The notes under the pieces are model-generated. The model was not told the origin of the DNA and did not search any database. It saw only the letters and a program-made list of their open reading frames with translations. A program made the position numbers and the translations under genes. Below are positions 6,197 through 38,717 of a stretch of 64,000 bases of DNA, piece by piece. Source of the stretch: Nitrospirota bacterium (GTDB lineage Bacteria > Nitrospirota > Nitrospiria > Nitrospirales > Nitrospiraceae); assembly GCA_963701855.1 (NCBI GenBank), contig CAVPBK010000005.1, positions 96,001-160,000 of the forward strand. Reading direction: 5' to 3'. Numbering within the stretch: the first letter of the stretch is position 1; the number at the start of each line of letters is the position of its first letter.

Positions 6197-6643
6197 TTAC
6201 GGTACTTCGACGATGTCCTTCTTCATAGGACCCAGCACAGCAAGGAGTTCGTTCTTTTCCCTGGCTGGCACGTTGAACGTATCCAATGCCTTGACGAGGT
6301 CTTCAACCAGGGCATTGAAGGCAGCCGTCGTGATTTTCATGCCGGCATGCGTTGTTTTCATGTCTTTCCCATCATAGGTGCAGGGGCCTCCGCTGGCTTG
6401 GCAGACCTGGTCGACCAGCTGCTTCTTCAGGTGCGGCAGATCGGCATGGGCAAAATACCCGTTGATGCGGGTGTCTTGGCCCACGATGCTGACGAACTTG
6501 CCGACGACGGCCGTGATAGGGCCGGTTCCGCCGAGCCGTTCATATAGTGAGGGCAACGGAGCATCGGCTGCCCACACCGGCGATGAGATCAACAGCAAGG
6601 AGACGGTCAGCATAGTCTTGATGGCGCAAGAAAGTTGTTTCAT
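6197..6643 (-). CDS. Group 1 truncated haemoglobin with N-terminal signal peptide
   Basis: SLYERLGG, SGGPCTYDGKDMKTTH (proximal His) and F.ALV..L motifs; signal MKQLS...VWA; RBS AAGGAG before ATG 6643. Confidence 0.9.
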   Translation of the reverse strand: MKQLSCAIKTMLTVSLLLISSPVWAADAPLPSLYERLGGTGPITAVVGKFVSIVGQDTRINGYFAHADLPHLKKQLVDQVCQASGGPCTYDGKDMKTTHAGMKITTAAFNALVEDLVKALDTFNVPAREKNELLAVLGPMKKDIVEVP

Positions 6644-6715
6644 GAAAGGCGCTCCTTTTTGAGAGGTAATTGAGGGCTTCCTTCGAGTGCACAGCTCTAT
6701 CATATTTCAGGTCGT

Positions 6716-7663
6716 TTAGGGCTTCCAGGGCGTCAGTGGCATCAGCGGAGCATCCTTGGCTACCGGTGTAATCGTCAGCGCGGCAATGGCTCCACGAAGG
6801 GCTCCAGTGAGCGAATGCGTCACAATCGGATAGACCCCGGGTGATTCGGAGACCAAGTCGAATGTGGCGGCGCTTCCGGGTCCTACGACATAGGTTTGTA
6901 CCCCTGTGAGTTTGTTGGCAGGGTTCCCGCTCTCGTAGACGTTGTCCCAAATCTCGCCGATCGGGTGGAGCGAGGAAAACTCGTTGGGGCCCGCGTTCAC
7001 AAAATAGATCCGGACCCGCTCATTCGGTTTCGCCTCTAGCGCTTCCGCGCCGATGAAGAAGGGATGATACTTGAAGATCCCTCCGTTGAAGACCGTATAG
7101 TCGAACTTCCGAGCGAACATGGCCTCGACATCGTCGGGGTTCTTCCAGAGCTCAGATTGGACCAACAAAAACTCCCGGTCCGCTTTCGGCCAGACCTTCG
7201 GATCCTTGGGATCGACGATAATCGCGCCGAACATGCCGCGCGCGACGTGCTGAATCATGGGTGCTGCGCCGCAATGATAGAAAAACACGCCGGGCTTCTT
7301 CGCCACAAAGGTGAAGGAAATGGTTTCTCCCGGATTGATGGCCCGGTAGTTCTTCAGGAAATCGATTTCCGCCGCATGGAAGTCCATGGCGTGTGGAAAA
7401 ACATTGGTCTTGGGATTCTCCAGCGTGAAGTTGACAGTGTCACCTTCCGTGACCCGCACGGCCGGCCCCGGCATCTGGCCGTTGAACGTCCAGGCCTTAT
7501 ATTTCGTTCCCGTTCCTTCAATCACGATTTCCGTTTCGAGCGCCGTCATCTTGACGTCATGGGTCTTCGCGGATGCCTCGGAGGGCAATCCCATCAATCC
7601 GGCAATCGCAAGGGCCGTGGCCCCTGCGATGGCCATGAGTTGAGGTGATCGTCTTTTCATCAT
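6716..7663 (-). CDS. nirK: Copper-containing nitrite reductase, Nitrospira type, all ligands intact
   Basis: HAMDFH, YHC-x7-H-x4-M, SSLHPIGE and VTHSL give the full T1/T2 Cu set plus catalytic Asp and His; signal peptide; GAGGAG RBS. Confidence 0.92.
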   Translation of the reverse strand: MMKRRSPQLMAIAGATALAIAGLMGLPSEASAKTHDVKMTALETEIVIEGTGTKYKAWTFNGQMPGPAVRVTEGDTVNFTLENPKTNVFPHAMDFHAAEIDFLKNYRAINPGETISFTFVAKKPGVFFYHCGAAPMIQHVARGMFGAIIVDPKDPKVWPKADREFLLVQSELWKNPDDVEAMFARKFDYTVFNGGIFKYHPFFIGAEALEAKPNERVRIYFVNAGPNEFSSLHPIGEIWDNVYESGNPANKLTGVQTYVVGPGSAATFDLVSESPGVYPIVTHSLTGALRGAIAALTITPVAKDAPLMPLTPWKP

Positions 7664-7891
7664 GGTTGGACTCCTCTCTGAAATGGTTGGGCGAACTTCT
7701 CCGGGCAAATGTGCAACTGGTCTTTTCTTATGTGAAGGGTCTCACTGGCACTTCGTCTGTATGTGAGGAAAAGAATAACAGAGCAAAATTGTCTAGTGTA
7801 TATCGTAGCGTTCGGTTAAGAATCAAGCCCTTTGTTAGTCCCAAATGAGCCTGTGACCCAAAACCCGAAAAGTAGGCCAGGGGGAGCTTGA

Positions 7892-9047
7892 GGAAATGCC
7901 CCGCGACGTGGTCTTCTTAACTCAGAAGGAGGACCCGACGAGGGCACGACGACGAGGGTATATCGAAGAGCAGCTCCTGGCGGCCGTGCGACACGCGGAG
8001 GGCGGGACGACCGTAGTCGAGGGCTGTCGAGAGGTGGGGATCAGTGAGCAGACGTTCTCCCGCTGGAAACGAACGTACGTAGGGCTGGGGCTGAGCGAAC
8101 TCCGCGAGCTCCGGCAACGCCGAGAAGAGACCACGAAACTGAAGCGGCTGGCGGCCGATCTCTCACTTGATCGGCATAGGTTGCAGGAGATGGTGCGAAA
8201 AGAGCGGTACGGCCTCGGGACCGGCTGGCGCTGGCCCGCTGGGCGCACACGACCTACCAGGTCAGTGAGCGCCGACTCACGGTCGTGTTGCGGCGGGAGG
8301 GGGGCACGTGAATGCGAAACGGATCTATCGGCTGTATACGGACGAAGGGCTGACGGTGCGGACGAAACACCGCACGAAGGCCGCAGGCCGAGCCCGTGTG
8401 CCGCAGGCCCGAGCCACGGCGCCGAACGAGCGGTGGAGCATGGGTTTTATGAGCGAGCGTGTGGCGAATGGCCGCTGGGTTCGGATTCTGACCGTCGTGG
8501 ACCAGTTTACACGGGAGTGTCTGTGCTTGGTGGCGGATCAGTCGCTCACCGGAGAGACGGTGGCGGAGGCGGTAGAGCCGGTGGTGATGCACCGGGGCGC
8601 ACCGCGTGCGCTCACCGTGGACAACGGCAGCGAATTTTCCAGCCGCGTCATGGATGCCTGGGCCTACCGGCATGGGATCCCGCTGGATTTTATTCGACCG
8701 GGGAAGCCGGTGGCGAATGGCTTCATCGAGAGTGTCAATGGGCGGCTCCGTGATGAGGGTCTGAATGTGGACGTGTTCTTCACGCTGGACGAGGTGCAGG
8801 AGAAATTGGCGCGATGGCGGACGGACGATAACCTCCTACGCCCGCACAGTGCGTTTCAGGATCAGGCGCCAGTCTCTTTTGCGGCGAAGTGGTTCGCCGC
8901 CCGGCCGACGGCTCCGGCCTCTTCCGAATTGCTGGAGCCACTCACGTGAGCGATGCGAGCGTTGTAACGCTGCATGGGCGGCTCACACCGATCACGCGCA
9001 GGCCAATTCCTCAGGGCTCGATCGGTCTACATTCGCGGGGCGGGTCA
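7892..9047 (+). mobile_element. IS3-family element, degenerate (OrfA ~7960-8210, OrfB ~8308-8949)
   Basis: OrfA CREVGISEQTF.RWK..Y.G...LRELRQ; OrfB RWSMGF (first catalytic Asp replaced by Gly), TVDNGSEF, PGKP..NGFIES.NGRLRDE. Imperfect IRs share GCCCCGCGA; right end ...GCGGGGCGGGTCA. Confidence 0.88.
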
Positions 9048-9736
9048 GAAAGCCACAACATCGATTTTCATGCGGTCACTGGACCGGGTGGTGGAGCAGC
9101 AAGCCTCAATACCGACCAGGGGAGGAAAGTGAGTTACGATTTAAGGCCCTCAATGCTGGCCTCCATTTCTATCACTGTGCCACCGCATCGCCATCCATTC
9201 CTGAACACATTGCGAATGGAATGTATGGCGGGATCTTAGTTGAGCCGGTTGGCGGGCTTCCCAAGGTAGACAAAGGGTTTTATGTCGTGCAGAGCGAGTT
9301 TTACACCAAGCCTGGCAAGAAGGGCGAGACCTTGGAATTTTCGTTCGAAAATGGGTTAACGGAGCACCCGTTACATGTGGTGTTTAACGGCATGGCGGGT
9401 TCGCTTATCAAGAATCTTCTGATGGCCAAGGTGGGCGACACCATTCGAATGTATTATATCAACGCAGGACCCAATCTGACCGAAAATTGGCACGTCATCG
9501 GCGAGATATTTGACAGGGCGTACCCCAAGGGTTCCTTGATTATGCCTCCATTGCAGAACGTCCAAACCACTGTCGTGCCGGCTGGTGGCTCTTCCATGGC
9601 AGAGTTTAAGATCGAGGTGCCTGGAACCTATATCAATGTGGACCACGCAATCTTCCGCATCGCAAAAGGCGCCGTTGGCCTGATAAAGGTGGAAGGTGCG
9701 GAGTAATCGGACATCTACAAGAACCTCCTGAAGTAA
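9048..9736 (+). pseudogene. nirK: Truncated AniA/NirK-type copper nitrite reductase
   Basis: Begins at the IS right end with ESHNIDFHA; frameshift near 9120; then YHCATASPSIPEHIANGM, WHVIGE, VDHAIFR; probable premature TAA at 9704; 5' third missing. Confidence 0.88.
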
Positions 9737-28270: not shown

Positions 28271-28503
28271 CGCCGAGAAGTCCACGGGCTGCTCTCTTCC
28301 ATTGCCTCGCATGCTGCACTCCTGCCGCTGATCCGTCACGTATCGTTAGGGCGCTCTGTTTATTGCAGTAAACCGCCAGATTTATTGCACAAGCCCACTT
28401 GACATATTCCGATGTATGCTGAGATATATATGTGCGCTGTTCGCTAATCGATAAGTTTGCTCAGGAGCGTAGTGATGTGTTTTTACAAACGGGGAGTACG
28501 CAC

Positions 28504-28959
28504 ATGGTCAACAAGTTTTGGCTGAGGTGTAGTCTGCTGGTCTGCGGCGTGCTGCTTATTTCAATGGGAACTGGATATGCGGAACCGGCAGCGCCGGCCA
28601 AATCGTCAGGACAGTCGCTTGCGATCAGCGGCAAGGTCAGTATTGCGCCGAGCCTTGCCGGCAAGGGGTCCGCAACGGACACGTTATTTGTGTTTGCCCG
28701 TGAGACGAATGGCCCACCGATGCCGGTGGCGATCATGCGGGCGACGAAGAAAGACTTGCCCTTTACGTTTCGGCTCGATGACTCGAACAGCATGATGCCG
28801 TCCAGAACACTCTCCGACGTCGCAATGGTGGTGATTGTGGCTCGTCTGTCGAAGTCCGGCCAGGCTATGCCGCAAAGTGGAGACTTAGAGGGGATGAGTC
28901 AACCAGTGAAGCCTGGAGTAGATGGGGTCACCGTCGTCATCGATCGCGAAAGACCGTAG
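28504..28959 (+). CDS. Stand-alone exported CcmI C-terminal-domain protein with a HaoA-like signal peptide
   Basis: MVNKFWLRCSLLVCG.. followed by a third copy of the CcmI C-terminal domain ending VVIDRERP; RBS GGGGAG. Confidence 0.85.
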   Translation: MVNKFWLRCSLLVCGVLLISMGTGYAEPAAPAKSSGQSLAISGKVSIAPSLAGKGSATDTLFVFARETNGPPMPVAIMRATKKDLPFTFRLDDSNSMMPSRTLSDVAMVVIVARLSKSGQAMPQSGDLEGMSQPVKPGVDGVTVVIDRERP

Positions 28960-29259: not shown

Positions 29260-30969
29260 ATGACCAATAAATTCTGGTTGAGATGTGGCCTGGTAGTTTG
29301 CGGGGCGTTGCTTACGGCAACAGCTCAGGCAGACTTCCCCAGCGTCCCCAAGGAAACCTACGAGGCGCTGAACCTTGATCGGTCCGCCAGCCCCAAGCAA
29401 TTGCATGAGGCGTTGACGAAGCGCTTCGTGGATCCAGGCAGAGGCGCGGGGAAAGGGCAGTACGGCCAGTATTGGGAGCCGATCCCAATGAGCAAGTATT
29501 TCGATCCAATGTCGTTCTACAAGCCCCCGACATCGGTCAAGGAAATCGCGACACGCGAGCAGTGCGTGAAATGCCACACCGATGAGTCGCCGGGGTGGGT
29601 GGAACTTTGGAAAAAGAGTGCTCACGCCAATCTTGACAAGATTCGCAAGCTTACCCCAAAAGACGACACTTTCTACAAGAAGGCGAAGTTAGAGGACGTG
29701 GAAAATAACCTTCGCTCGATTGGCAAGCTCGGACCAACAGAGAACTTGAAGGAAGTCGGCTGCATCGATTGCCACGTTGACATCAACACGAAGAAGAAGG
29801 CCGATCACCGGGTCGACCTGAAGATGCCCACTTCCGATGTGTGCGGCAACTGCCATCTACAAGAATATGCCGAGCGCGAGTCCGAGCGCGACACGATCTT
29901 ATGGCCGAAAAACCAGTGGCCGAGGGGCCGCCCGTCGCACGCGCTGGATTACAGGGCCAACGTCGAGACGGATATCTACGCCGGAATGTCGCAGCGCGAG
30001 ATCGCTGATGGCTGCACAATGTGCCACACCAACCAGAACAAGTGCGATAATTGCCATACCAGGCACGAATTCTCGGTGGCCAACTCCCGCAAGCCTGAAG
30101 CCTGCGGCACCTGTCACAGCGGCGCCGATCACAACAACTGGGAAGCCTACAACGGGTCGCAGCATGGGCTGGGGTACCAGGCCTCTAAAAATCAATGGAA
30201 TTGGAATGTACAGCTCAAGGATGCAGTTGCCAAGGGCGGGCAGCGCTTCCCTACCTGCCAGAGCTGTCATATGGAGTATCAGGGCAAATTCACCCACAAC
30301 ACGGTGCGTAAGGTTCGCTGGGCGAACTATCCCTTCGTGCCTGGCATTAGAGAACCTGTATTTGGCGAATGGGGCCAGAAGCGCCTGGATGCGTGGGTCA
30401 AGACCTGCACAACGTGCCACTCCGAGAGCTTCGCGCGCGCATGGTTGGAGTTTATGGACAACGGCACCTCTGAGGGACTCGATAAATACGATGAGGCGCA
30501 CAACGTAGTCCGTAAGCAGTATGACGCTAGACTCCTCACCGGTCAGAGGAACAACCGGCCTGCTCCTCCAGCGCCGGCTAAGGCCCAGTTCGACCAGTTT
30601 TGGCAGATCTACTGGTCGAAGGGCAACAGCCCTACAGCGATCGAGCTCAAGCTCTTCGAAATGGCTGAGGACCATCTGGTGCAACTGCACGTCAGTCTCG
30701 CGCACCAATATCCAGGGTTCACCTATACTGTCGGCTGGGCAGCGATGAACCGGGCTTATGTCGAAATCATGGACGAGGACACCAAGCTTAAGGAAAAGCT
30801 GATGCTGATGGAACGGGTGGCCAAACTCGAGCAGAGCAAGACCAGTAGCCTGCTGGATTTCGATAGCACGGACGGGAAGCTTACGCTCGGCAGCGTGGGC
30901 GGCGGATTGTTGCTGACCGGCACCCTCGCGCTCGCCGGATGGAGCAGACGCAAGAAGAACCAGCGGTGA
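29260..30969 (+). CDS. haoA: Hydroxylamine oxidoreductase (dehydrogenase)
   Basis: Eight CxxCH motifs, DHNNWE catalytic pair, [13 protein letters not shown] cross-link Tyr region, C-terminal TM. Confidence 0.98.
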
Positions 30970-32015
30970 CAACTGGCGCAGCGCAAACGATGGAAGCAGC
31001 GCTGACGCGATCAAGTAGTAGAGTCCTCCCGTCGCTAGGAATAGTCCTAGTGGCGGGAGGACTTCTTATGCTTGGTTGGTTTGCATTTATGTGGCTCAGT
31101 CCAGGCCCAGCGCCGTATCACTACCGCATGGTGGAAGAGGGCGGTATTGATAAGTTCAGCAAGCTCGGACTAGATGCTTGGCCTGACCTTGGCATCAGCA
31201 AGCAAGAGATTCGAGTAGAGGGTGTGGACGAACCGGTAGCTGTAGCCTATCTTGCCCGCCGCGGAAATTCAAAACCCGTTATGCTCGCTTGGGAAAATTA
31301 CATCGGCGATCCATTGGTTTTCGTCGACAGTAAGCTCTCCGAGCTGACCCTGTTGGCACCAGCGATTGCTAAGCATGTGCCGAAAGGCGCTGCCATTCTT
31401 GCCTGGTGGGACACCTCGCGTCAGATTCAGCTCTTGACTGGGTTAGAGACGGTGTTCACCTCTCATCTCAGTGGACCTATTATCACGCCGTCGCTCTGGC
31501 GACCGCGAATCGAGGCGATCGAGAAATACGAACGCGAGTTCTGGGGCTCTACGGTAAGTGCAGAAGAGAGGGGGAAATTCCAACGCTTTGCTGACGCCCT
31601 GTCGGCAGAGTCGACAGAAGGTGCAGCGATGCTGCGTGAACTGACTGGCGGGCGCGAAGCCTATGTCGTGGTTCACGTCTCGGACCTCTACAAACTCGGG
31701 CAGATGCGCCCCGATCGCATCGGTGTCGCCTACAAGGACTTCCCCTTGAAGGGTGGGGATGTGCATGGTCTAAGCGCGATGGTGAAGCGTTGGCAAATGG
31801 ACAACAACTACACTTCCCAAACGGTGTATGGACTCTCGGAGAGTTTAGTGCGCGCCTACTTCCTCACCGATGCGAAGAGCGATAATACGCTGCTCGCACA
31901 GATGCTGCCCATGACGACCTCGAAGCCTCTCGAATTCAAAGCCCTCCAGTTGGTCCATAAACAGGGAGGCTATTGGGTGTATAAGATTCTGTCTGCGCAG
32001 CCATCGAATATCTGA
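30966..32015 (+). CDS. haoB: Hydroxylamine oxidation protein HaoB
   Basis: N-terminal [11 protein letters not shown] motif, position between haoA and cycA; start uncertain. Confidence 0.92.
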
Positions 32016-32140
32016 TTCTTTGAGTGGCCGAAGTGGAAGGACCGGTATTGAAAAACTTGTACACTCTCGATAGAGTAACGCACAGTCGATTTTTCAAGCA
32101 CGACCACGCATAGTTTTCTAGATAGAAAGGAGACACACCA

Positions 32141-32860
32141 GTGAAACATCTCATGACACTCACACTTGCCGCTACGGCGTTGTTTGCTGTCTTAGTCGGA
32201 ACCGCTGCCGCCGAAACTTCATTTGAGGGACGGAAGAAATGTAGTAATTGTCACAAGAGTGAGGCCGATTCATGGCTCAAGACCGCCCATGCCAAAGCGG
32301 TCGACTCGCTCAAAGCCGACAGGAATAAGGAAAAGAATGCAGCCATGGTCAAGGCAAAGCTTGACCCTAAAAAGGACTTTAGCAAGGACAAGGATTGCAT
32401 CGGCTGCCATGTGACTGGATTCGGGGTAGAAGGTGGGTATGAAATTTCGGAGCCGGACAAGTTCTTGATCGGTGTAGGTTGTGAATCCTGCCATGGGGCC
32501 GGTCCAGATTACCGCAAGATTCACCGTAAGGCAGGCGAGGCCTTTGAAAAGTCGAAAAAGGTCACGCCGCGCGAGTCCCTCGCGGAAGCCGGACAAGAGT
32601 TTGAGTTCATTGAGAAGTGCAGCTCGTGCCACCTGAACTACGAGGGCTCTGGGTGGAAAGGGACTAAGAAACCCTACACGCCTTTCACCCCCACTGTAGA
32701 CAAGAAGTATACGTTCGACTTTGAGAAGATGGTGCGGAACAACAAGGCCATGCATGAACACTTTAAGCTAGCGGGCACGTTTGAAGGTCCGCCTACCCCA
32801 AAGTTCCATGAAGAGTTCCAAAAAGATGCCAAGCCGGCTGAAATCGGTAAGGAGGAGTAA
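32141..32860 (+). CDS. cycA: Tetraheme cytochrome c554
   Basis: FEGRKKCSNCH, CIGCH, CESCHG, CSSCH, MHEHFKL. Confidence 0.96.
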   Translation: MKHLMTLTLAATALFAVLVGTAAAETSFEGRKKCSNCHKSEADSWLKTAHAKAVDSLKADRNKEKNAAMVKAKLDPKKDFSKDKDCIGCHVTGFGVEGGYEISEPDKFLIGVGCESCHGAGPDYRKIHRKAGEAFEKSKKVTPRESLAEAGQEFEFIEKCSSCHLNYEGSGWKGTKKPYTPFTPTVDKKYTFDFEKMVRNNKAMHEHFKLAGTFEGPPTPKFHEEFQKDAKPAEIGKEE

Positions 32861-33447
32861 TGGCAGAGTGGGGTAGAGTTTCGATCGGTGCCCTGATTCT
32901 TGGCGCAGCGATTGGCGTCGGAACTATTGCGGTGGTATTCGGAGGTGAAGCGGCCATATCCAGGACCGAGTTCTGCGTGAGCTGCCACTCCGAGACCTAC
33001 CCGTATGAGGAACTGAAGAAGTCCTCGCATTGGGGCGCGCTCGGTTCAGACCCTGGCTGTAAAAACTGCCATGTCCCGCAGGGTTTCCAGAACTTCCATC
33101 TGGCGTTGTGGACACATATCGTGGATGGACTGCCGTTCCTGATAGAAGAGTTCACCGTTGATTACTCGACGATCGAAAAGTTCAATGAGCGGCGGCCGGA
33201 GGCAGCCTACAGGGCACGGATGAAGCTGAAGGGGTGGGACAGCATGACCTGCCGGGCCTGCCACAGTAATCCAAAGCCGCCAGGTGCATCCGCCAAAGCT
33301 GCGCATAAGAAGATGGAGACGGAGGGTGCAACCTGCATCGATTGCCACCAGAATCTTGTGCATAAAAAAGTCCCAGAGACGGATCTCAATGCCAGTCTGG
33401 CTCAAGGCAAGATGGTGTTGAAGGAAGAGAAGAAAGAGAAAGACTGA
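32860..33447 (+). CDS. cycB: Membrane tetraheme cytochrome cm552 (NapC/NirT family)
   Basis: N-terminal TM plus four CxxCH motifs. Confidence 0.95.
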   Translation: MAEWGRVSIGALILGAAIGVGTIAVVFGGEAAISRTEFCVSCHSETYPYEELKKSSHWGALGSDPGCKNCHVPQGFQNFHLALWTHIVDGLPFLIEEFTVDYSTIEKFNERRPEAAYRARMKLKGWDSMTCRACHSNPKPPGASAKAAHKKMETEGATCIDCHQNLVHKKVPETDLNASLAQGKMVLKEEKKEKD

Positions 33448-33828: not shown

Positions 33829-34743
33829 ATGAGGTCGAGTTTGCTACGCCATTTCCCTGAGATTGATGCCGCCTATACGCATAGGAAAAGGGACTACACC
33901 ATAGCGGCGGTCACGTTTGCTTCTGTTGCGATCTGTATGGCGTTTGAAGTAAGCGGGAGTGTGTGGAAACAATATGCCCTAGGGTGTATCGCGTTGGTAT
34001 GTCTGATTGGGTTCTTGCGGGGTGAGACGAGAGAAGTACGATTGCAGGTTGCAGTGGCAGTCGCGTTTACGACAATCGGTGAATATGTGGCGTCTGTCTG
34101 TATGGGTGGCTACACCTATCGCTTCGACAATGTGCCGGCCTATGTGCCACTCGGTCACGGAATGGTGTATTTAACTTCCATTGCGTTGGCGCGTTCCGGG
34201 CTGTTTATTAAATATGCAAGAGTAATTACCACAACAGTGATTGTGATGTGCGGAGCATGGTCGATTTGGGGGATCAGCGGGATCCCAGAACAGGGTGATG
34301 TAGGAGGGGCGGTGCTCTTCTCTGTGTTTTTGATCTGTCTGTTTAGAGGTCGCTCGCCATTGGTGTACCTCGCGGCATTCTTTATTACAACTTGGCTGGA
34401 GATACTCGGCACAGCAGCTGGGGCCTGGAAATGGGCCTTGGTAGACCCTGTGTTTGGTTTGGCCCAGGGAAACCCTCCAAGTGGGGTTGCTGTCTGGTAT
34501 TGCCTTGTTGATGCGGTGGCCCTCACTGGAGGGCCTCTATTATCGCGCGGCCTGGAGAATGCCAGCGGATGGCTTACATCTAAGGGCTATTATCCTGAAC
34601 GAGTGGGGAGACTGTCAGATCTTCTAGGTTTCCGAGGTCATGTACGTGAGGATATTCAAACGCAGATACACCGCACCTCGCAGGCCATCAGTACATCGTT
34701 AAAGAACCCCGATCTTGCCGTCGAGCCTCTCGACAAAACCTAA
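33829..34743 (+). CDS. Conserved polytopic membrane protein of unknown function
   Basis: About 7-8 TMs; repeated E...Y.Y/W.W...NVP/NPP pattern (YTYRFDNVPAYVPLGHG; WKWA...GNPPSG). Confidence 0.8.
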   Translation: MRSSLLRHFPEIDAAYTHRKRDYTIAAVTFASVAICMAFEVSGSVWKQYALGCIALVCLIGFLRGETREVRLQVAVAVAFTTIGEYVASVCMGGYTYRFDNVPAYVPLGHGMVYLTSIALARSGLFIKYARVITTTVIVMCGAWSIWGISGIPEQGDVGGAVLFSVFLICLFRGRSPLVYLAAFFITTWLEILGTAAGAWKWALVDPVFGLAQGNPPSGVAVWYCLVDAVALTGGPLLSRGLENASGWLTSKGYYPERVGRLSDLLGFRGHVREDIQTQIHRTSQAISTSLKNPDLAVEPLDKT

Positions 34744-35069: not shown

Positions 35070-35585
35070 CTACTTCGCGTCATCGCGCACACACCAGACA
35101 TAGTTCGTGTTGGTCTTAAAATCGTTGCCTACGAGGCCATAGTCGAAGTTTACGTCCCACGCGCTCATCGTATAGTCTTCATGCTCCGTCGACGTCCAAT
35201 AGCCAAAAAACTCGATGTTGGAAAATGGATGGCCAGGCGGGAGGGCAGGGGGAGGATATATCGTGTGATCCGCCAGGGTCGCCAACTCTTTGACTGCGGG
35301 CAAGCGCCAGCCCTTTTTGCCACCGACGGTCTTTTTCGCACAGATACCGGCGGCATTTTTCCAAACCGTCCTCGCTCTCGTCGGTATTGTCTCCCATACC
35401 AGCCCCGTCTCATTATCCAGCACCCCCTCATTATTCATGGCCTCTAGCACGACAAACCGCGCGCTCTGCGACTCAGCTGCTTCAGCAGGGGTGGCTCCTG
35501 AGCCGAAACCAGCCAGCGCCAGGCATACAACAGCCAGCCCCACAGCCCCGATGCGGCTCACCCATTTGGTTCTACTGCTTTTCAT
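35070..35585 (-). CDS. Exported Lcl C-terminal / DUF1566 domain protein
   Basis: Signal peptide, VLDNETGLVWE, WKNA..C, GWRLP..EL, YWTST, WCVR. Confidence 0.88.
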   Translation of the reverse strand: MKSSRTKWVSRIGAVGLAVVCLALAGFGSGATPAEAAESQSARFVVLEAMNNEGVLDNETGLVWETIPTRARTVWKNAAGICAKKTVGGKKGWRLPAVKELATLADHTIYPPPALPPGHPFSNIEFFGYWTSTEHEDYTMSAWDVNFDYGLVGNDFKTNTNYVWCVRDDAK

Positions 35586-35704: not shown

Positions 35705-36709
35705 CTACAGCCCTTTGAAAAGGCTAGGATTGGTTGGACCATCTATCTTGAGCAGGCCGAGGGCGCCTTTTTCGGTGCGGAAGATCGAATGGTCAACCGA
35801 AACAAACGTGCCGGGCATTTCGCCTTTAAATTCTCCTATGGTCGCTTCACCTGGCGGCACCAGGGTGCTTTGGATACTCTCATATGGCGCTTTTGCCACG
35901 TTACCTCCTGGCCACACCCGATCTAACATCTCGCCGATGACGTGCCACGAAGAATCAAAGTTGACTCCTGCATTGCCAAAGAACCATCGATCGGTCTCTC
36001 CCACTTTAGATCGTAGCGGAACTTTGACCAGCGCGGTCATATGGCCGTTATGCACTATATAAGAAGCATCCGCATCTGTCACCTTTTGATTCGAAAAAAC
36101 CAGGGTATCATTCTTCTTGCCATCCTTCATGTAAAATTCGCTCTGCATGACATAGAATTCTTTTTCGACAGGCTTCAGCCCACCAACCGGCTCAACTAAG
36201 ATCAAGCCGTACATGCCACTCAAAAGGTGTTGTATGTTGGCTGGCGCTGCAGTGGAGGACTGATAGACAAAGAGACCTTGGTTGGTGGCCTTAAATGTTA
36301 TCTGAGCTTCCTTCCCGGGCTCCGCATTGACCAGGGCGGCTCCGCCACTGGCCTTATTGAAGTCAAGATTGTGACTCTGCTTGCTGTCCTTCTTGTTCTT
36401 CAAATGGACTTCAACCGTATCGCCCACCATGACGCGGATCATGGGCCCTGGCACCATTCCATTAACACCCCAGAACTCATAATTGTTATCGTCGCTAATC
36501 GGACCGACCCACTCGGACGCTTCCAGGTTGACCACGACGGTGGCGGGCTGGGTTCGTGTGATGGGAGGGGGAACATTGGGTGCCTTCGTCAGTTGGGCTT
36601 GGATGGTTTCCGCCGACACCACGCCTGCATTGATGGCAAGACAGGGAGCCATGACCAATGCGCTGATCAATCCGGCATGACGCACGCTACGCAAAAAACT
36701 CTTGGACAT
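35705..36709 (-). CDS. NirK-family paralog 'B': domain-1 Cu ligands lost, domain-2 ligands intact
   Basis: HNLDFN (T2 His to Asn), YQSS (T2 His to Gln, T1 Cys to Ser); WHVIGE and VDHSIFR retained. Confidence 0.9.
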   Translation of the reverse strand: MSKSFLRSVRHAGLISALVMAPCLAINAGVVSAETIQAQLTKAPNVPPPITRTQPATVVVNLEASEWVGPISDDNNYEFWGVNGMVPGPMIRVMVGDTVEVHLKNKKDSKQSHNLDFNKASGGAALVNAEPGKEAQITFKATNQGLFVYQSSTAAPANIQHLLSGMYGLILVEPVGGLKPVEKEFYVMQSEFYMKDGKKNDTLVFSNQKVTDADASYIVHNGHMTALVKVPLRSKVGETDRWFFGNAGVNFDSSWHVIGEMLDRVWPGGNVAKAPYESIQSTLVPPGEATIGEFKGEMPGTFVSVDHSIFRTEKGALGLLKIDGPTNPSLFKGL

Positions 36710-36822
36710 GACGCCTCCTTTAATTTTGGATTAACTCTGTGCGGCCATCATCCTGATCACCTGCCTGCAGAGTACTTAAGGCCTTTGTAGATGGCCTAGC
36801 TGGCGGATTCTCTAGACTACCT

Positions 36823-37800
36823 TCAGTCTACCTTCAGCAGGCCAAGGGCGCCTTTGTCCTTTCGATCCTTCACTGGGTCAACGATAGTATAGGTGCCCGC
36901 CTTGACTTTAAACTCTACCATGACAGCGCCACCTGTAGGAATCCTGGTAACCTTGACATTCTCCGCCGGAGGTGAGGTCAAAGAACCCTCGGTGTACACC
37001 CTGTCCATCGTCTGTTCGAGGATCTGCAAAGACGAGACAAAGTTGGGTCCTGAGTTGGTTAAGAAAATCCGAACTGTGTCTCCGGCCTTGGCTCGAAGAG
37101 GATTTTTGACCAGCGAGCTCGCATTGCCGTTATATACAACATGGGAGGGGCGCTCGTCCAACCCATTTTCGTACGAAAACTCCAAGGTCTCGCCCTTGCC
37201 GCCCTCTTTCGAGTAAAACTCGCTTTCCATGATCTGGAATTCTTTTTCGACAGGCTTCAGCCCACCGACTGGCTCAACTATGATCGTGCCGTACATGCCA
37301 TTCGAAATGTGCTCGGGAATGGATGGCGATGCGGTGGCGCAGTGATACAAAAAGACGCCAGGAATGATCATCTTAAACTTTCCCCCGCTCTCCTGCCCTG
37401 GCTCGCTATTGAGCAGGCTAGCCCCGCCGCCTGGTCCCGTGATCGCATGGAAGTCAATATTATGAGATTCCTTGCTGTCCTTATGGTTCTTCAAACGGAT
37501 TTCAACCGTATCGCCCACCATGACGCGGATCATGGGCCCTGGCACGTTTTTATTAAAACCCCAAAACTCATAGTTGTTATCGTCGCTAAGCGGACCGACC
37601 CACTCGTTCGATTCCAGGTTGACCACGACGGTGGCGGGCTGGGTTCGTGTGATGGGAGGAGGAACATTGGGTGCGATCGCCAGTTGGGCTTTGATGGTCT
37701 CCGCCGACACCACGCCTGCGTTGATGGCAAGACACGGAGCCATGACCAATGCGCTGATCAATCCGGCATGACGCACATTACGCGAAAAACTTTTGGACAT
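36823..37800 (-). CDS. NirK-family paralog 'A': domain-1 Cu ligands intact, domain-2 ligands lost
   Basis: HNIDFH and YHCATASPSIPEHISNGM retained; SSLQILE (catalytic His to Gln) and VDPVK (T2 His to Pro). Confidence 0.9.
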   Translation of the reverse strand: MSKSFSRNVRHAGLISALVMAPCLAINAGVVSAETIKAQLAIAPNVPPPITRTQPATVVVNLESNEWVGPLSDDNNYEFWGFNKNVPGPMIRVMVGDTVEIRLKNHKDSKESHNIDFHAITGPGGGASLLNSEPGQESGGKFKMIIPGVFLYHCATASPSIPEHISNGMYGTIIVEPVGGLKPVEKEFQIMESEFYSKEGGKGETLEFSYENGLDERPSHVVYNGNASSLVKNPLRAKAGDTVRIFLTNSGPNFVSSLQILEQTMDRVYTEGSLTSPPAENVKVTRIPTGGAVMVEFKVKAGTYTIVDPVKDRKDKGALGLLKVD

Positions 37801-37908
37801 GACGCCTCCTTTGATTTTGGACTGCCCTGACGGTTTCTTCTCTCATACGACGTGGGACGAACCGAATGGTTTCAGCCCCGGTTCAGGGCATTGTCATTAC
37901 CCGCCTGC

Positions 37909-38370
37909 TTAAGGTTTGTAACATGAGTGGTCGTGCGGCTTGCCCCCGTTCGAGAACTGGTTCTCAAACGCCATCACATGCCAGATCTGCTCCTCCGACA
38001 GCATGCTCTTCCAGGCTTTCATCTTCGTCTTCGGGATACCTTCCGAAATTCGCCAGTACCAGAAGCTGTCGGACCAACGGCAGATATTTTTAGGATCACG
38101 CATATCCCGCGCACCCTTTTTTACGGGTTGACCATCCTTACCATGGCAGCTGCCACAGTTGACCTGCGGATTAGCCTCGCCGCTGTAAATCAGCGCTCCA
38201 TCTTCGATAGCCTTAGGATCCGTCCACCCTCCAGCCGGCATTTTTTTGTCTGCATACTCGGCTGGAACCGGGGGCAAAGGGGGTTCATCTTCAGCGAAGG
38301 CCATGCCCCCTGACAGAATCAGAGCGCTCCCCAGCATCATGATCGACATACCGAAATACCTTCCCGTCAT
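37909..38370 (-). CDS. Periplasmic monoheme class I cytochrome c
   Basis: Signal peptide, CGSCHG, EGIPKTKMKAW axial Met; RBS GGAGG. Confidence 0.9.
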   Translation of the reverse strand: MTGRYFGMSIMMLGSALILSGGMAFAEDEPPLPPVPAEYADKKMPAGGWTDPKAIEDGALIYSGEANPQVNCGSCHGKDGQPVKKGARDMRDPKNICRWSDSFWYWRISEGIPKTKMKAWKSMLSEEQIWHVMAFENQFSNGGKPHDHSCYKP

Positions 38371-38717
38371 TCCCGCCTCCTATTTCTTTAAATGGTGAGT
38401 CTGGTCAATCGACGAGGTCCTGCCTCATGGGGTACATTCAGTAGTGCTCCCCTTTGGGCCACCACATTGGAGATAATCCAGTCCTGCCACACCAACGGCA
38501 GCAGGGACCGTCTAGGCACAACCACAGGCCGGGAAAGTTGTCTACCATGGCGCCCTTCTCTCGATCTGTGGCGGCAATTTAATATACAAATTACCTAGTG
38601 TCAAGAGGTCGTATAGCGCTGTCAACCCAATTTTTCTGTGGGTCATCACTACGGCCTGTATGACATGTCGCATCGCGTATCGGGTCGTCATATCCATGGC
38701 GATCATTTGATGGCTCC

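Follow-up and report, generated by a model that had tools for sequence, protein, structure and literature searches.

Tandem NirK paralogs with complementary losses of copper-site residues in comammox Nitrospira: candidate subunits of one copper enzyme

Introduction

Two tandem nirK-type genes of a bacterium from the family Nitrospiraceae raise the question of whether the active site of one copper enzyme can be divided between two gene products. The genes, here called A and B, lie on the minus strand in the order cytochrome c-A-B, beside the hydroxylamine-oxidation genes of a complete-nitrifying Nitrospira. All coordinates refer to the window, the whole stretch of 64,000 nucleotides that was analysed (assembly GCA_963701855.1, contig CAVPBK010000005.1, positions 96,001 to 160,000). 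In NirK, the type-2 copper site is formed jointly by two neighbouring chains, one of which contributes domain 1 and the other domain 2. NirK is among the most thoroughly studied copper enzymes, and to our knowledge it has only been described as homotrimers or as hexamers built from them, with three identical sites at the subunit interfaces. A preliminary description of this DNA had proposed that A and B lost exactly complementary sets of ligands, and that they may form an obligate heteromeric enzyme.

The tandem arrangement itself is already known. Two nirK genes ('duplicate nirK') beside hao, which are the same pair in the same synteny, were described in comammox genomes, and the co-transfer of the pair with the hao cluster between comammox clades was proposed (Palomo et al., 2022, Microbiome 10:204; PMC9714041). 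The accessible text of that article contains nothing on lost copper ligands or a mixed complex, although its supplement, including Figure S6, may bear on the point. NirK was also reported to be present in comammox bacteria with a role unknown (Poghosyan et al., 2019; PMC6852473). A literature search found no printed account of complementary NirK losses. For a heteromeric NirK, it returned only unrelated uses of the words (as in PMC8301774 and PMC1403158), and the preliminary description likewise knew of no such enzyme.

Results

Organization of the locus

Two full-length NirK reading frames were found where the preliminary description had placed them: A (P0001; 36823..37800, minus strand, 325 aa), with the domain-1 half of the site, and B (P0002; 35705..36709, minus strand, 334 aa), with the domain-2 half. 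The first gene of the operon (37909..38370, minus strand) encodes a class I c-type cytochrome of 153 aa with a CGSCH motif, a signal-like N-terminus and a match to Pfam PF13442, and this cytochrome is likely the redox partner for the type-1 copper of A. No terminator-like site was found in the cytochrome c-A spacer (37801..37908, minus strand) or in the 113-bp A-B spacer (36710..36822, minus strand). The ribosome-binding sites previously described are present in both spacers, with AAAGGAGG a few bases before the ATG of A and AAAGGAGG again before the ATG of B. A sigma-70-like promoter match (38576..38604, minus strand; TTGACA, 17-nt spacer, TAAATT; 10/12) lies upstream of the cytochrome gene, and it is a consensus match only, with five promoter-like matches in the region against 2.8 expected. 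Downstream of B, a protein with an Lcl_C (DUF1566-type) domain and a signal-like N-terminus (35070..35585, minus strand; Pfam PF07603) is possibly encoded by the last gene of the operon; fragments of Lcl_C homologs were seen 3' of B in 6 of 30 loci, where the flanks are short.

The hydroxylamine-oxidation module (29260..33447, plus strand) includes hao (29260-30969), a haoB-like open reading frame (30939-32015), cycA/c554 (32141-32860) and cycB of the NapC-NirT type (32860-33447). The distance between B and the end of cycB at 33447 is 2.26 kb, which agrees with the 2.3 kb given before. In eight of the nine other pair genomes whose coordinates were compared, the pair and hao share a contig and are about 5-7 kb apart. 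The signal peptides proposed for both proteins correspond to near-identical hydrophobic signal-like N-termini, as judged by eye only. An AniA-like lipoprotein signal was considered, also by eye, and rejected; the N-terminal Cys is preceded by Pro and does not fit a lipobox. A word-sampling search of 35705-38370 yielded 14 metatranscriptome runs containing 23-42% of the sampled words, which are word matches only and not evidence of expression.

Family assignment and ligand residues

A and B are identical at 199 of 326 residues (61%). Both contain Pfam Cu-oxidase_3 and two cupredoxin-type domains homologous to those of solved NirKs. Their best matches are copper nitrite reductases, with PDB 6the_A aligned by HMMER over nearly the full length (E 1.8e-83 for A and 1e-81 for B). 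The closest solved structures are two-domain NirKs of the AniA/class II type, namely 6the, the NirK cores of 2dv6, 6tfd, 2zoo and 3ziy, and 1kbv (E 1e-72 to 1e-83). They share with A and B the two-cupredoxin fold family, the ligand motifs and the regions in which the A-B interface is predicted, whereas the full residue set is contained in neither the A nor the B chain. The TIGR02376 scores of A (235.1 bits) and B (238.6 bits) are both under the curated equivalog cut-off of 296.3 bits.

The residues were read from the HMMER alignments to 6the and are given below in AcNiR/AxNiR numbering with the roles that we take them to have: His95, Cys136, His145 and Met150 for type-1 copper, His100, His135 and His306 for type-2 copper, together with Asp98 and His255. 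A retains H113-N-I-D116-F-H118, Y-H153-C154, H164 and M169. These comprise the full type-1 ligand set (H113, C154, H164, M169), two type-2 histidines (H118, H153) and the catalytic Asp (D116). At the positions of His255 and His306 it has Q259 (SSLQILEQ) and P309 (VDPVK). In B, the first motif reads H113-N-L-D116-F-N118, with N118 at the His100 position and a deletion of three residues after the DF motif, and Q150-S151 stand at His135-Cys136; W-H256-VIGE and VD-H307-SIF are intact. All four type-1 ligands are therefore found in A, while B is without Cys136. The type-2 set is complete in neither chain and only across A and B together; Asp98 is accompanied by Gln at the His255 position in A, and B has both Asp98 and His255. 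A C-terminal tail of about 10-12 residues is present in B and in the S-type NirKs described below, and absent from A. The alignment bears out the retained and lost ligands that had been listed for each protein, and the two halves are reciprocal. The claim of an exact complement went too far: Asp98 and three type-1 ligands persist in B, and its His100 position varies among orthologs.

Conservation of the pattern in related genomes

Searching 301 species-representative genomes of the same family revealed that the adjacent pair recurs elsewhere with the same substitutions, as had been anticipated. B comes next after A at 28 of the 30 loci; the contig ends at the remaining two. The seven domain-1 residues are kept in 30/30 A orthologs, with Gln at His255 in every one and Pro (29) or Ala (1) at His306. 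Among the 26 full-length B orthologs, none has lost His255, His306, the three type-1 ligands His95, His145 and Met150, or Asp98. His135 is replaced in B by Gln (19) or Arg (7) and Cys136 by Ser (25) or Pro (1), and the His100 position is variable (Gln 10, Gly 7, Thr 6, Asn 1, Ser 1, His 1 in the 26 genome representatives). Metagenome clusters gave a similar picture: Gln in place of His255 and loss of His306 in 19/19 A-type clusters, His135 and Cys136 absent from 36/36 B-type clusters, 21 of which have His at the His100 position, and the nine residues complete in 64 S-type clusters. B-type proteins are common in environmental data, with some of the 36 clusters exceeding 200 member sequences. 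The pattern recurs in every ortholog examined, so it is more than chance. The pair genomes belong to two genera, and the pair occurs there together with an HAO that is 85-98% identical to the HAO of the window.

B is broken in two of the 28 loci (assemblies G290 and G284). We set these copies aside as a sign of dispensability. In G290, hao also has three stops or is split, which points to assembly errors, and an assembly error is possible in G284.

S-type NirK and the probable origin of the pair

A single complete NirK, here called S, was found in 24 related genomes behind the same cytochrome gene. All nine residues are present in 24/24 (four of these loci by alignment consensus). A cytochrome c homolog immediately precedes the nirK gene or genes at 27 of the 30 A/B loci and at 18 of 20 S loci. 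A and B are both absent from the 24 S genomes, just as an intact S is absent from the 30 pair genomes, so that S and the A-B pair are alternative states of one locus. The S-type proteins of related comammox Nitrospira (loci L035-L054 and L063-L066) are 64-68% identical to A and 56-60% to B, and two of their representatives, P0036 and P0097, pass TIGR02376 with 318.6 and 310.6 bits. In the tree, the A sequences and the B sequences form one clade each (SH-aLRT 100), the two clades are sisters (95), and S lies outside as the sister group to A+B. A and B are thus sister clades from one duplication. Their stem branches are long (0.37 for B and 0.15 for A), and the branching orders within the two clades are similar by eye only. 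In five of six sampled loci of the window's genus, the nucleotide identity of A and B is 83-97% over approximately the first 100 codons and falls to about 61-66% in the following segment, which starts just past the His95-His100 motif. We read this high 5' identity as gene conversion.

The window also contains a truncated and frameshifted remnant of an S-type nirK (8889..9706, plus strand), with HNIDFH in one frame and YHC...H...M, WHVIGE and VDH in another. Over 197 aa, the remnant and the S protein of locus L047 are 92% identical. An IS3-family transposase encoded in two overlapping frames (HTH_Tnp_1, then rve; 7896..8949, plus strand) abuts the 5' end of the remnant. A third, divergent nirK (P0003; 6716..7708, minus strand) has all nine ligand and catalytic residues intact and also scores under the TIGR02376 cut-off (213.9 bits). 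Among the NirK-type genes found in this genome it alone has a complete set of ligands, and its presence means that the pair is not required for nitrite reduction there.

Selection on the two genes and on their interface faces

The Nei-Gojobori medians of dN/dS, which like the Fisher figures below are descriptive and not independent tests because sequence pairs within one clade are related, were 0.27 for A (domain 1, 0.21; domain 2, 0.30), 0.22 for B (domain 1, 0.24; domain 2, 0.185) and 0.14 for S (domain 1, 0.147; domain 2, 0.127). A and B are under purifying selection. The values are well below 1 in both domains of both genes, and the asymmetry runs in the predicted direction. These data bear on the reading that A and B are decaying duplicates without function. 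Their dN/dS is higher than that of S, both proteins fall under the TIGR02376 cut-off and B is broken in two loci, which would be expected of decay. Nevertheless, the open reading frames of 30 A and 26 B orthologs are intact over two genera, dN/dS is only 0.22-0.27, and the substitutions are fixed and identical among orthologs. The broken copies come from the assembly in which hao has stops or is split (G290) and from one with a possible error (G284). Decay is close to refuted and can hardly be believed; the preliminary description had considered random decay unlikely to give such clean reciprocity.

A finer comparison used the interface faces taken from the two-chain model of the same A-B pair (described below). 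On the face that donates domain 1, the S consensus is matched at 34 of 53 positions in A and 14 of 53 in B (Fisher p 0.0002). On the face that donates domain 2, it is matched at 15 of 44 positions in A and 24 of 44 in B (Fisher p 0.085). A whole-domain test of divergence from S was weak (Fisher p 0.16 for all columns and 0.017 for S-conserved columns), and the test per face is sharper. Pooled pN/pS in A was 0.245 on face 1, 0.547 on face 2 and 0.308 elsewhere, and in B it was 0.464, 0.180 and 0.231 in the same order. For S the values were 0.231, 0.240 and 0.187, which means equal constraint on its two faces. The unused face of each paralog is thus relaxed about twofold.

The divergence of the faces that would make the B-to-A contact is also compatible with A and B as separate homo-oligomers with separate functions. 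A3 could be a type-1-copper electron carrier or an altered two-His (+Asp/Gln) enzyme, and B3 a copper-poor binding or sensor protein, or one with a new His255/His306/Asp98 site. A reduced site is possible in each chain, from His100, His135, Asp98 and Gln in A and from His255, His306, Asp98 and sometimes His100 in B. B conserves three type-1 ligands without the Cys, and long stem branches are expected after a change of function. We regard this explanation as unlikely, though it is the one that deserves most attention among the alternatives. Under it there is no reason for the retained residues to make up exactly two halves of a single site, or for each protein to have relaxed the very face that is constrained in its partner. 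Nor does it account for the constant linkage and co-inheritance of A and B, or for the way in which the pair and a complete S stand in for each other at one locus.

Predicted A-B complex

The complex was predicted in one two-chain job with mature A and B, in three runs that differed by seed only. The ipSAE was 0.95 in 3/3 runs against 0.01 for the best of three controls, a score that may reflect the model's memory of solved NirK trimers, since many NirK homotrimers have been solved and close paralogs pass such tests. In the benchmark, 116 of 157 solved complexes attained the ipSAE mark, as did 2 of 215 mismatched pairs. At least 99% of the contacts agree among the runs, and the partner pLDDT is at least 93. 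The predicted interface involves residues 116 and 118-126 of A and residues 254-256, 306-314 and the tail 329-334 of B. In this model, Asp116 and His118 of A face the opposite His256/His307 face of B, which is the orientation with a complete composite site. The chosen orientation is weak evidence, as the three runs differ only in seed.

An A-B contact, which the model supports, would also suit a non-catalytic B that binds the enzyme A as a stabilizer or activator ('prozyme') and gives no copper ligands. There are enzymes that depend on a dead paralog for activation, such as the trypanosomatid deoxyhypusine synthase (PMC3663545). Such a role seems improbable here, more so than separate functions. 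B keeps exactly the two domain-2 residues for a type-2 site, His256 and His307, in 26/26 orthologs, no part of B is more constrained than its domain-2 face (pN/pS 0.180), and A is without a third type-2 His of its own.

Discussion

We consider it probable that A and B belong together as the two subunits of a single NirK-type copper enzyme in the periplasm, which works only as a mixed complex. The earlier interpretation is in this respect supported, by computation only. All of the suggested checks that can be computed turned out in its favour, and none of the contrary outcomes open to computation appeared. A complete S-type nirK behind a c-type cytochrome gene would have been duplicated in tandem once, and the two copies would then have shed complementary parts. 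A would have retained the domain-1 half, consisting of the type-1 copper, the Cys-His bridge, the type-2 ligands His100 and His135, and Asp98. It would have shed the domain-2 input through the changes His255 to Gln and His306 to Pro and the deletion of the C-terminal tail. B would have retained His255, His306 and the tail. Without Cys136 and His135, B would have no type-1 copper and no wire to the type-2 site. One type-1 copper, three type-2 histidines, Asp98 and His255 would come together only where domain 1 of A meets domain 2 of B. This would mean that there is one catalytic centre per A-B contact, and not three per trimer, and that the homotrimers of A or B alone would be inactive. The co-encoded cytochrome c would exchange electrons with the type-1 copper of A, and the reaction is probably the interconversion of nitrite and NO.

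We infer that the two proteins assemble physically, as A2B, AB2 or an open AB pair, with the copper content that the composite site implies. A cyclic trimer can never have a 1:1 composition, and a closed heterotrimer needs a contact between domain 1 of B and domain 2 of A, both faces of which are strongly diverged, so several quaternary structures are conceivable. Trypanosomatid deoxyhypusine synthase resembles the pair in its duplicated subunits, its active sites at interfaces and an activity proposed to depend on a complex of two impaired paralogs (PMC3663545). It differs in fold, chemistry and domain of life, and it combines one weak and one dead subunit, unlike the reciprocal halves of a metal site in NirK.

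A more specific role is doubtful. An asymmetric NirK with a single type-1/type-2 pair, co-transferred with hao, could have evolved for a part in the ammonia oxidation of comammox Nitrospira of clades B and A2, possibly as the long-sought enzyme that converts NO from HAO to nitrite and gives the electrons to the co-encoded cytochrome c. The surfaces of B domain 1 and A domain 2 could have been freed for partner docking, or the trimer could have opened to a 1:1 heterodimer. Any role of A-B in NO/nitrite chemistry or partner docking in this setting is speculation. The pair is nevertheless a concrete candidate for the NO-to-nitrite step, as it is located near hao and cycB and is proposed to travel with hao between clades, and B-type proteins are common in the environment.

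If the proposed mixed complex is real, it would be the first heteromeric NirK, with its site split over two gene products, and it would offer a ready-made one-site NirK in which to study how electrons move from type-1 to type-2 copper. In evolutionary terms it would be a clean bacterial case of the transition from a homomer to an obligate heteromer by complementary losses. Since A and B both carry the plain label 'nitrite reductase (NO-forming)' at present, gene counts would overestimate the number of independent NirK enzymes.

Complementary Loss of Copper Ligands

The tandem NirK paralogs A (325 aa, 36823-37800) and B (334 aa, 35705-36709) are 61% identical to each other, and both have 6the_A as their best match among the solved copper nitrite reductases, over the whole length (E 1.8e-83 and 1e-81, respectively). 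Their scores against the copper nitrite reductase profile TIGR02376 (235.1 and 238.6 bits) lie below the cut-off of 296.3, which is passed by S-type proteins (318.6 and 310.6 bits), S being the single-copy NirK with a complete residue set in related genomes. The residues of A and B were read off alignments to 6the, with type-1, type-2, and catalytic roles as in the NirK literature (AcNiR/AxNiR numbering). A has the type-1 ligands H113, C154, H164, and M169, the type-2 histidines H118 and H153, and also Asp116, with Gln259 at the position of the catalytic His255 and Pro309 at that of the type-2 His306. B retains His256 and His307, with Gln150-Ser151 at His135-Cys136 and Asn118 at His100. The preliminary description of complementary losses was right about these residues and needs three corrections: B retains Asp98 and three of the four type-1 ligands, its His100 position differs among orthologs, and A also lacks a C-terminal tail of about 10-12 residues.

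With A as the query, a search of 301 same-family genomes gave the 30 loci taken here, each with an A ortholog of at least 80% identity. B lies directly downstream of A in 28 of them; it is broken in two (G290 and G284) and has its full length in the other 26, and the remaining two loci end at the contig end. None of the 30 A orthologs has lost any of the seven domain-1 residues, and each has Gln at His255; His306 is replaced by Pro (29) or Ala (1). In B, His255, His306, His95, Asp98, His145, and Met150 are conserved in all 26 orthologs; His135 is replaced by Gln (19) or Arg (7) and Cys136 by Ser (25) or Pro (1), and the His100 position is occupied by Q (10), G (7), T (6), N, S, or H (one each). 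The substitutions claimed for the window thus recur in adjacent pairs of other genomes. In a large metagenome protein set, 7934 proteins match B at E 1e-40 or better, and among the best 120, Gln occupies the His255 position in each of the 19 A-type clusters, with Pro, Ala, Thr, Ser, or Val at His306. Neither His135 nor Cys136 is present in any of the 36 B-type clusters, of which 21, mostly from one closely related sub-lineage, have His at the His100 position. Taken together, the ortholog and metagenome residues identify the Cys-His bridge as the fixed loss in B, and its His100 position is simply unconstrained. A purely structural role of B as an activator is quite improbable, with His255 and His306 kept throughout.

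Origin of the Pair and Selection

The single nirK gene S is carried by 24 other genomes of the sample, with 64-68% identity to A, 56-60% to B, and all nine residues present. Of the 20 S loci checked, 18 have a cytochrome c homolog immediately ahead of S, and 27 of the 30 A loci have one immediately ahead of A; because the same cytochrome c gene precedes both, S and A-B represent one orthologous locus. According to the match lists of the 301-genome search with A, neither A nor B occurs in the S genomes (0/24), and no intact S was found in the pair genomes. The window contains a 5'-truncated and frameshifted S-type nirK remnant (8889-9706, plus strand), which has 92% identity to the locus L047 S protein and still encodes all ligand motifs; it abuts a plus-strand IS3-family transposase (from 7896) whose two frames, HTH_Tnp_1 followed by rve, overlap, transposase and remnant together covering 7896-9706. 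Next after the only complete nirK of the window (6716-7708, minus strand) comes a bacterial-like (truncated) globin of 168 aa (PF01152, E 3e-15; region 6197-7708) whose N-terminus is signal-like, and a secreted globin adjoining an NO-forming enzyme may be of interest.

In a maximum-likelihood tree of 88 proteins (quick search, LG+G4, outgroup of eight more distantly related Nitrospira NirKs), A and B are each monophyletic (SH-aLRT 100 each) and group as sisters (95) to the exclusion of S. Both clades have long stems (0.37 for B and 0.15 for A), and the branching orders inside the two clades are similar by eye. Together with the shared locus and the exclusive occurrence, the tree is what a single tandem duplication with rapid divergence and subsequent joint inheritance would leave behind. 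Median dN/dS values (pairwise Nei-Gojobori, pairs with dS 0.15-2), descriptive figures as the pairs are related, were 0.27 for A (domain 1 0.21, domain 2 0.30), 0.22 for B (0.24 and 0.185), and 0.14 for S (0.147 and 0.127). A and B are under purifying selection, somewhat relaxed compared with S, and the looser domain in each is the one whose catalytic residues are gone, in line with the earlier argument against random decay. That both genes are simply decaying, as the relaxed constraint might be read, is scarcely credible beside these values.

The first ~100 codons of A and B, together with the ribosome-binding regions, share 83-97% nucleotide identity in five of six sampled loci of the window's genus and 64-81% in the four sampled loci of the other genus. 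Over the following 30 codons, beginning immediately behind the His95-His100 motif, A-B identity is down to about 61-66%. This pattern suggests gene conversion at the 5' end that stops near the motif, and its apparent exclusion from the diverged stretch that follows looks like a further hint of selection. The 5' parts concerned in the window are 36709-36400 in B and 37800-37490 in A.

Gene Order and Association With hao

A and B are the second and third of four consecutive minus-strand genes, of which the first encodes a 153-aa c-type cytochrome (37909-38370) and the last, directly downstream of B, an Lcl_C (DUF1566-type) domain protein with a signal-like N-terminus (35070-35585). A promoter-like consensus match lies upstream of the cytochrome c gene, no terminator-like site was found between this gene, A, and B, and the ribosome-binding sites ascribed to both nirK genes are borne out by AAAGGAGG ahead of each. 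Lcl_C homolog fragments occur downstream of B in six of the 30 pair loci, where the flanks are short. Just upstream of the operon, the plus strand carries ccmABCEFGHI, hao, a haoB-like ORF (30939-32015, without a Pfam match), cycA, and cycB, and the gene content includes amo, hao, and ccm, which would fit a comammox Nitrospira. The end of cycB is 2.26 kb from B, which confirms the reported distance of 2.3 kb. Between cycB and the operon lies a 304-aa multi-pass membrane protein (33829-34743, plus strand), also without a Pfam match, whose homologs flank the pair in four other loci. The full-length ccmI/cycH gene has a CycH Ig-like domain (PF23892), and this domain recurs in a separate ORF behind it (175 aa; 28432-28959, plus strand), which may be a partial duplicate of the gene.

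Of the 30 pair genomes, which represent two genera of the family, 28 gave an HAO match (85-98% identity to the HAO of the window), as did 19 of the 24 S genomes (full-length matches at 77-85%, one at 70%). HAO was also present, mostly at about 73% identity, in 44 further genomes that had neither S nor the pair with A as the query at E 1e-30. Several HAO matches of the second genus (G046, G122, G142, G162, G249, and G261) are full-length, with one in-frame TAG reported, which may reflect a match extending upstream beyond the true start. A and hao share a contig, about 5-7 kb apart, in eight of the nine other pair genomes compared by coordinates (G101, G254, G260, G065, G222, G245, G081, and G241), and are 38 kb apart in G182. 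The distribution of the pair beside hao agrees with Palomo et al. (2022; PMC9714041), through whom the pair is already known as 'duplicate nirK' and in whose passages on these genes no mention of the lost copper ligands was found. Literature searches for a heteromeric NirK gave nothing relevant.

Predicted Complex and Proposed Mechanism

Mature A (34-325) and mature B (34-334) were predicted as two chains, the alignment for each consisting of its orthologs and S. The ipSAE was 0.95 in three of three runs and 0.01 in the best of three controls, the mark being one that 116 of 157 solved complexes and 2 of 215 mismatched pairs reach. The runs, which differ by seed only, agree in at least 99% of contacts, with partner pLDDT of at least 93. 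The predicted interface comprises residues 116 and 118-126 (Asp98 and His100 equivalents), 150-151, and 155 of A, and residues 254-256 and 306-314 (His255 and His306 equivalents) and the tail 329-334 of B, which touches A 142-143. The model, run for this one pair, thus picked the orientation that rebuilds a complete site, the domain-1 half of A facing the domain-2 half of B as the preliminary description had proposed. Since the solved structures include many NirK trimers, the score may reflect the predictor's memory of the family, and the prediction is best taken as an interface map, not as proof of binding.

Two faces were defined by the modelled contact residues: face 1 (53 columns) contributes the domain-1 half and face 2 (44 columns) the domain-2 half. 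The S consensus is matched by A and B, respectively, at 34/53 and 14/53 columns of face 1, 15/44 and 24/44 of face 2, and 158/206 and 140/206 of the rest of the protein; the difference between A and B is significant for face 1 (Fisher p 0.0002) and weaker for face 2 (p 0.085). The pN/pS values for A, B, and S were 0.245, 0.464, and 0.231 on face 1, 0.547, 0.180, and 0.240 on face 2, and 0.308, 0.231, and 0.187 in the rest. By these comparisons the degeneration is reciprocal across whole surfaces, beyond the ligands alone, and in both proteins divergence is highest and constraint lowest at the B(face 1)/A(face 2) contact. This cuts both ways, because a closed heterotrimer of any kind needs that contact; A2B, AB2, and even an open AB pair are possible forms of the complex. 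Separate new functions for A and B, each as a homo-oligomer, are unlikely, when the long stem branches are set beside the joint inheritance and the reciprocal faces.

We hypothesize, as the rather probable reading of the whole, that A and B form a mixed complex with a composite copper site and the cytochrome c as electron partner. On assembly in the periplasm, domain 1 of A would meet domain 2 of B, and the type-1 copper in A would be wired via Cys154-His153 to a type-2 copper at the A-B interface, ligated by His118 and His153 of A and His307 of B, with Asp116 of A and His256 of B as the acid-base pair. The other interfaces would be unable to form such a type-1/type-2 unit. The co-encoded cytochrome c would swap electrons with the type-1 copper of A, and the expected chemistry would be nitrite/NO interconversion.
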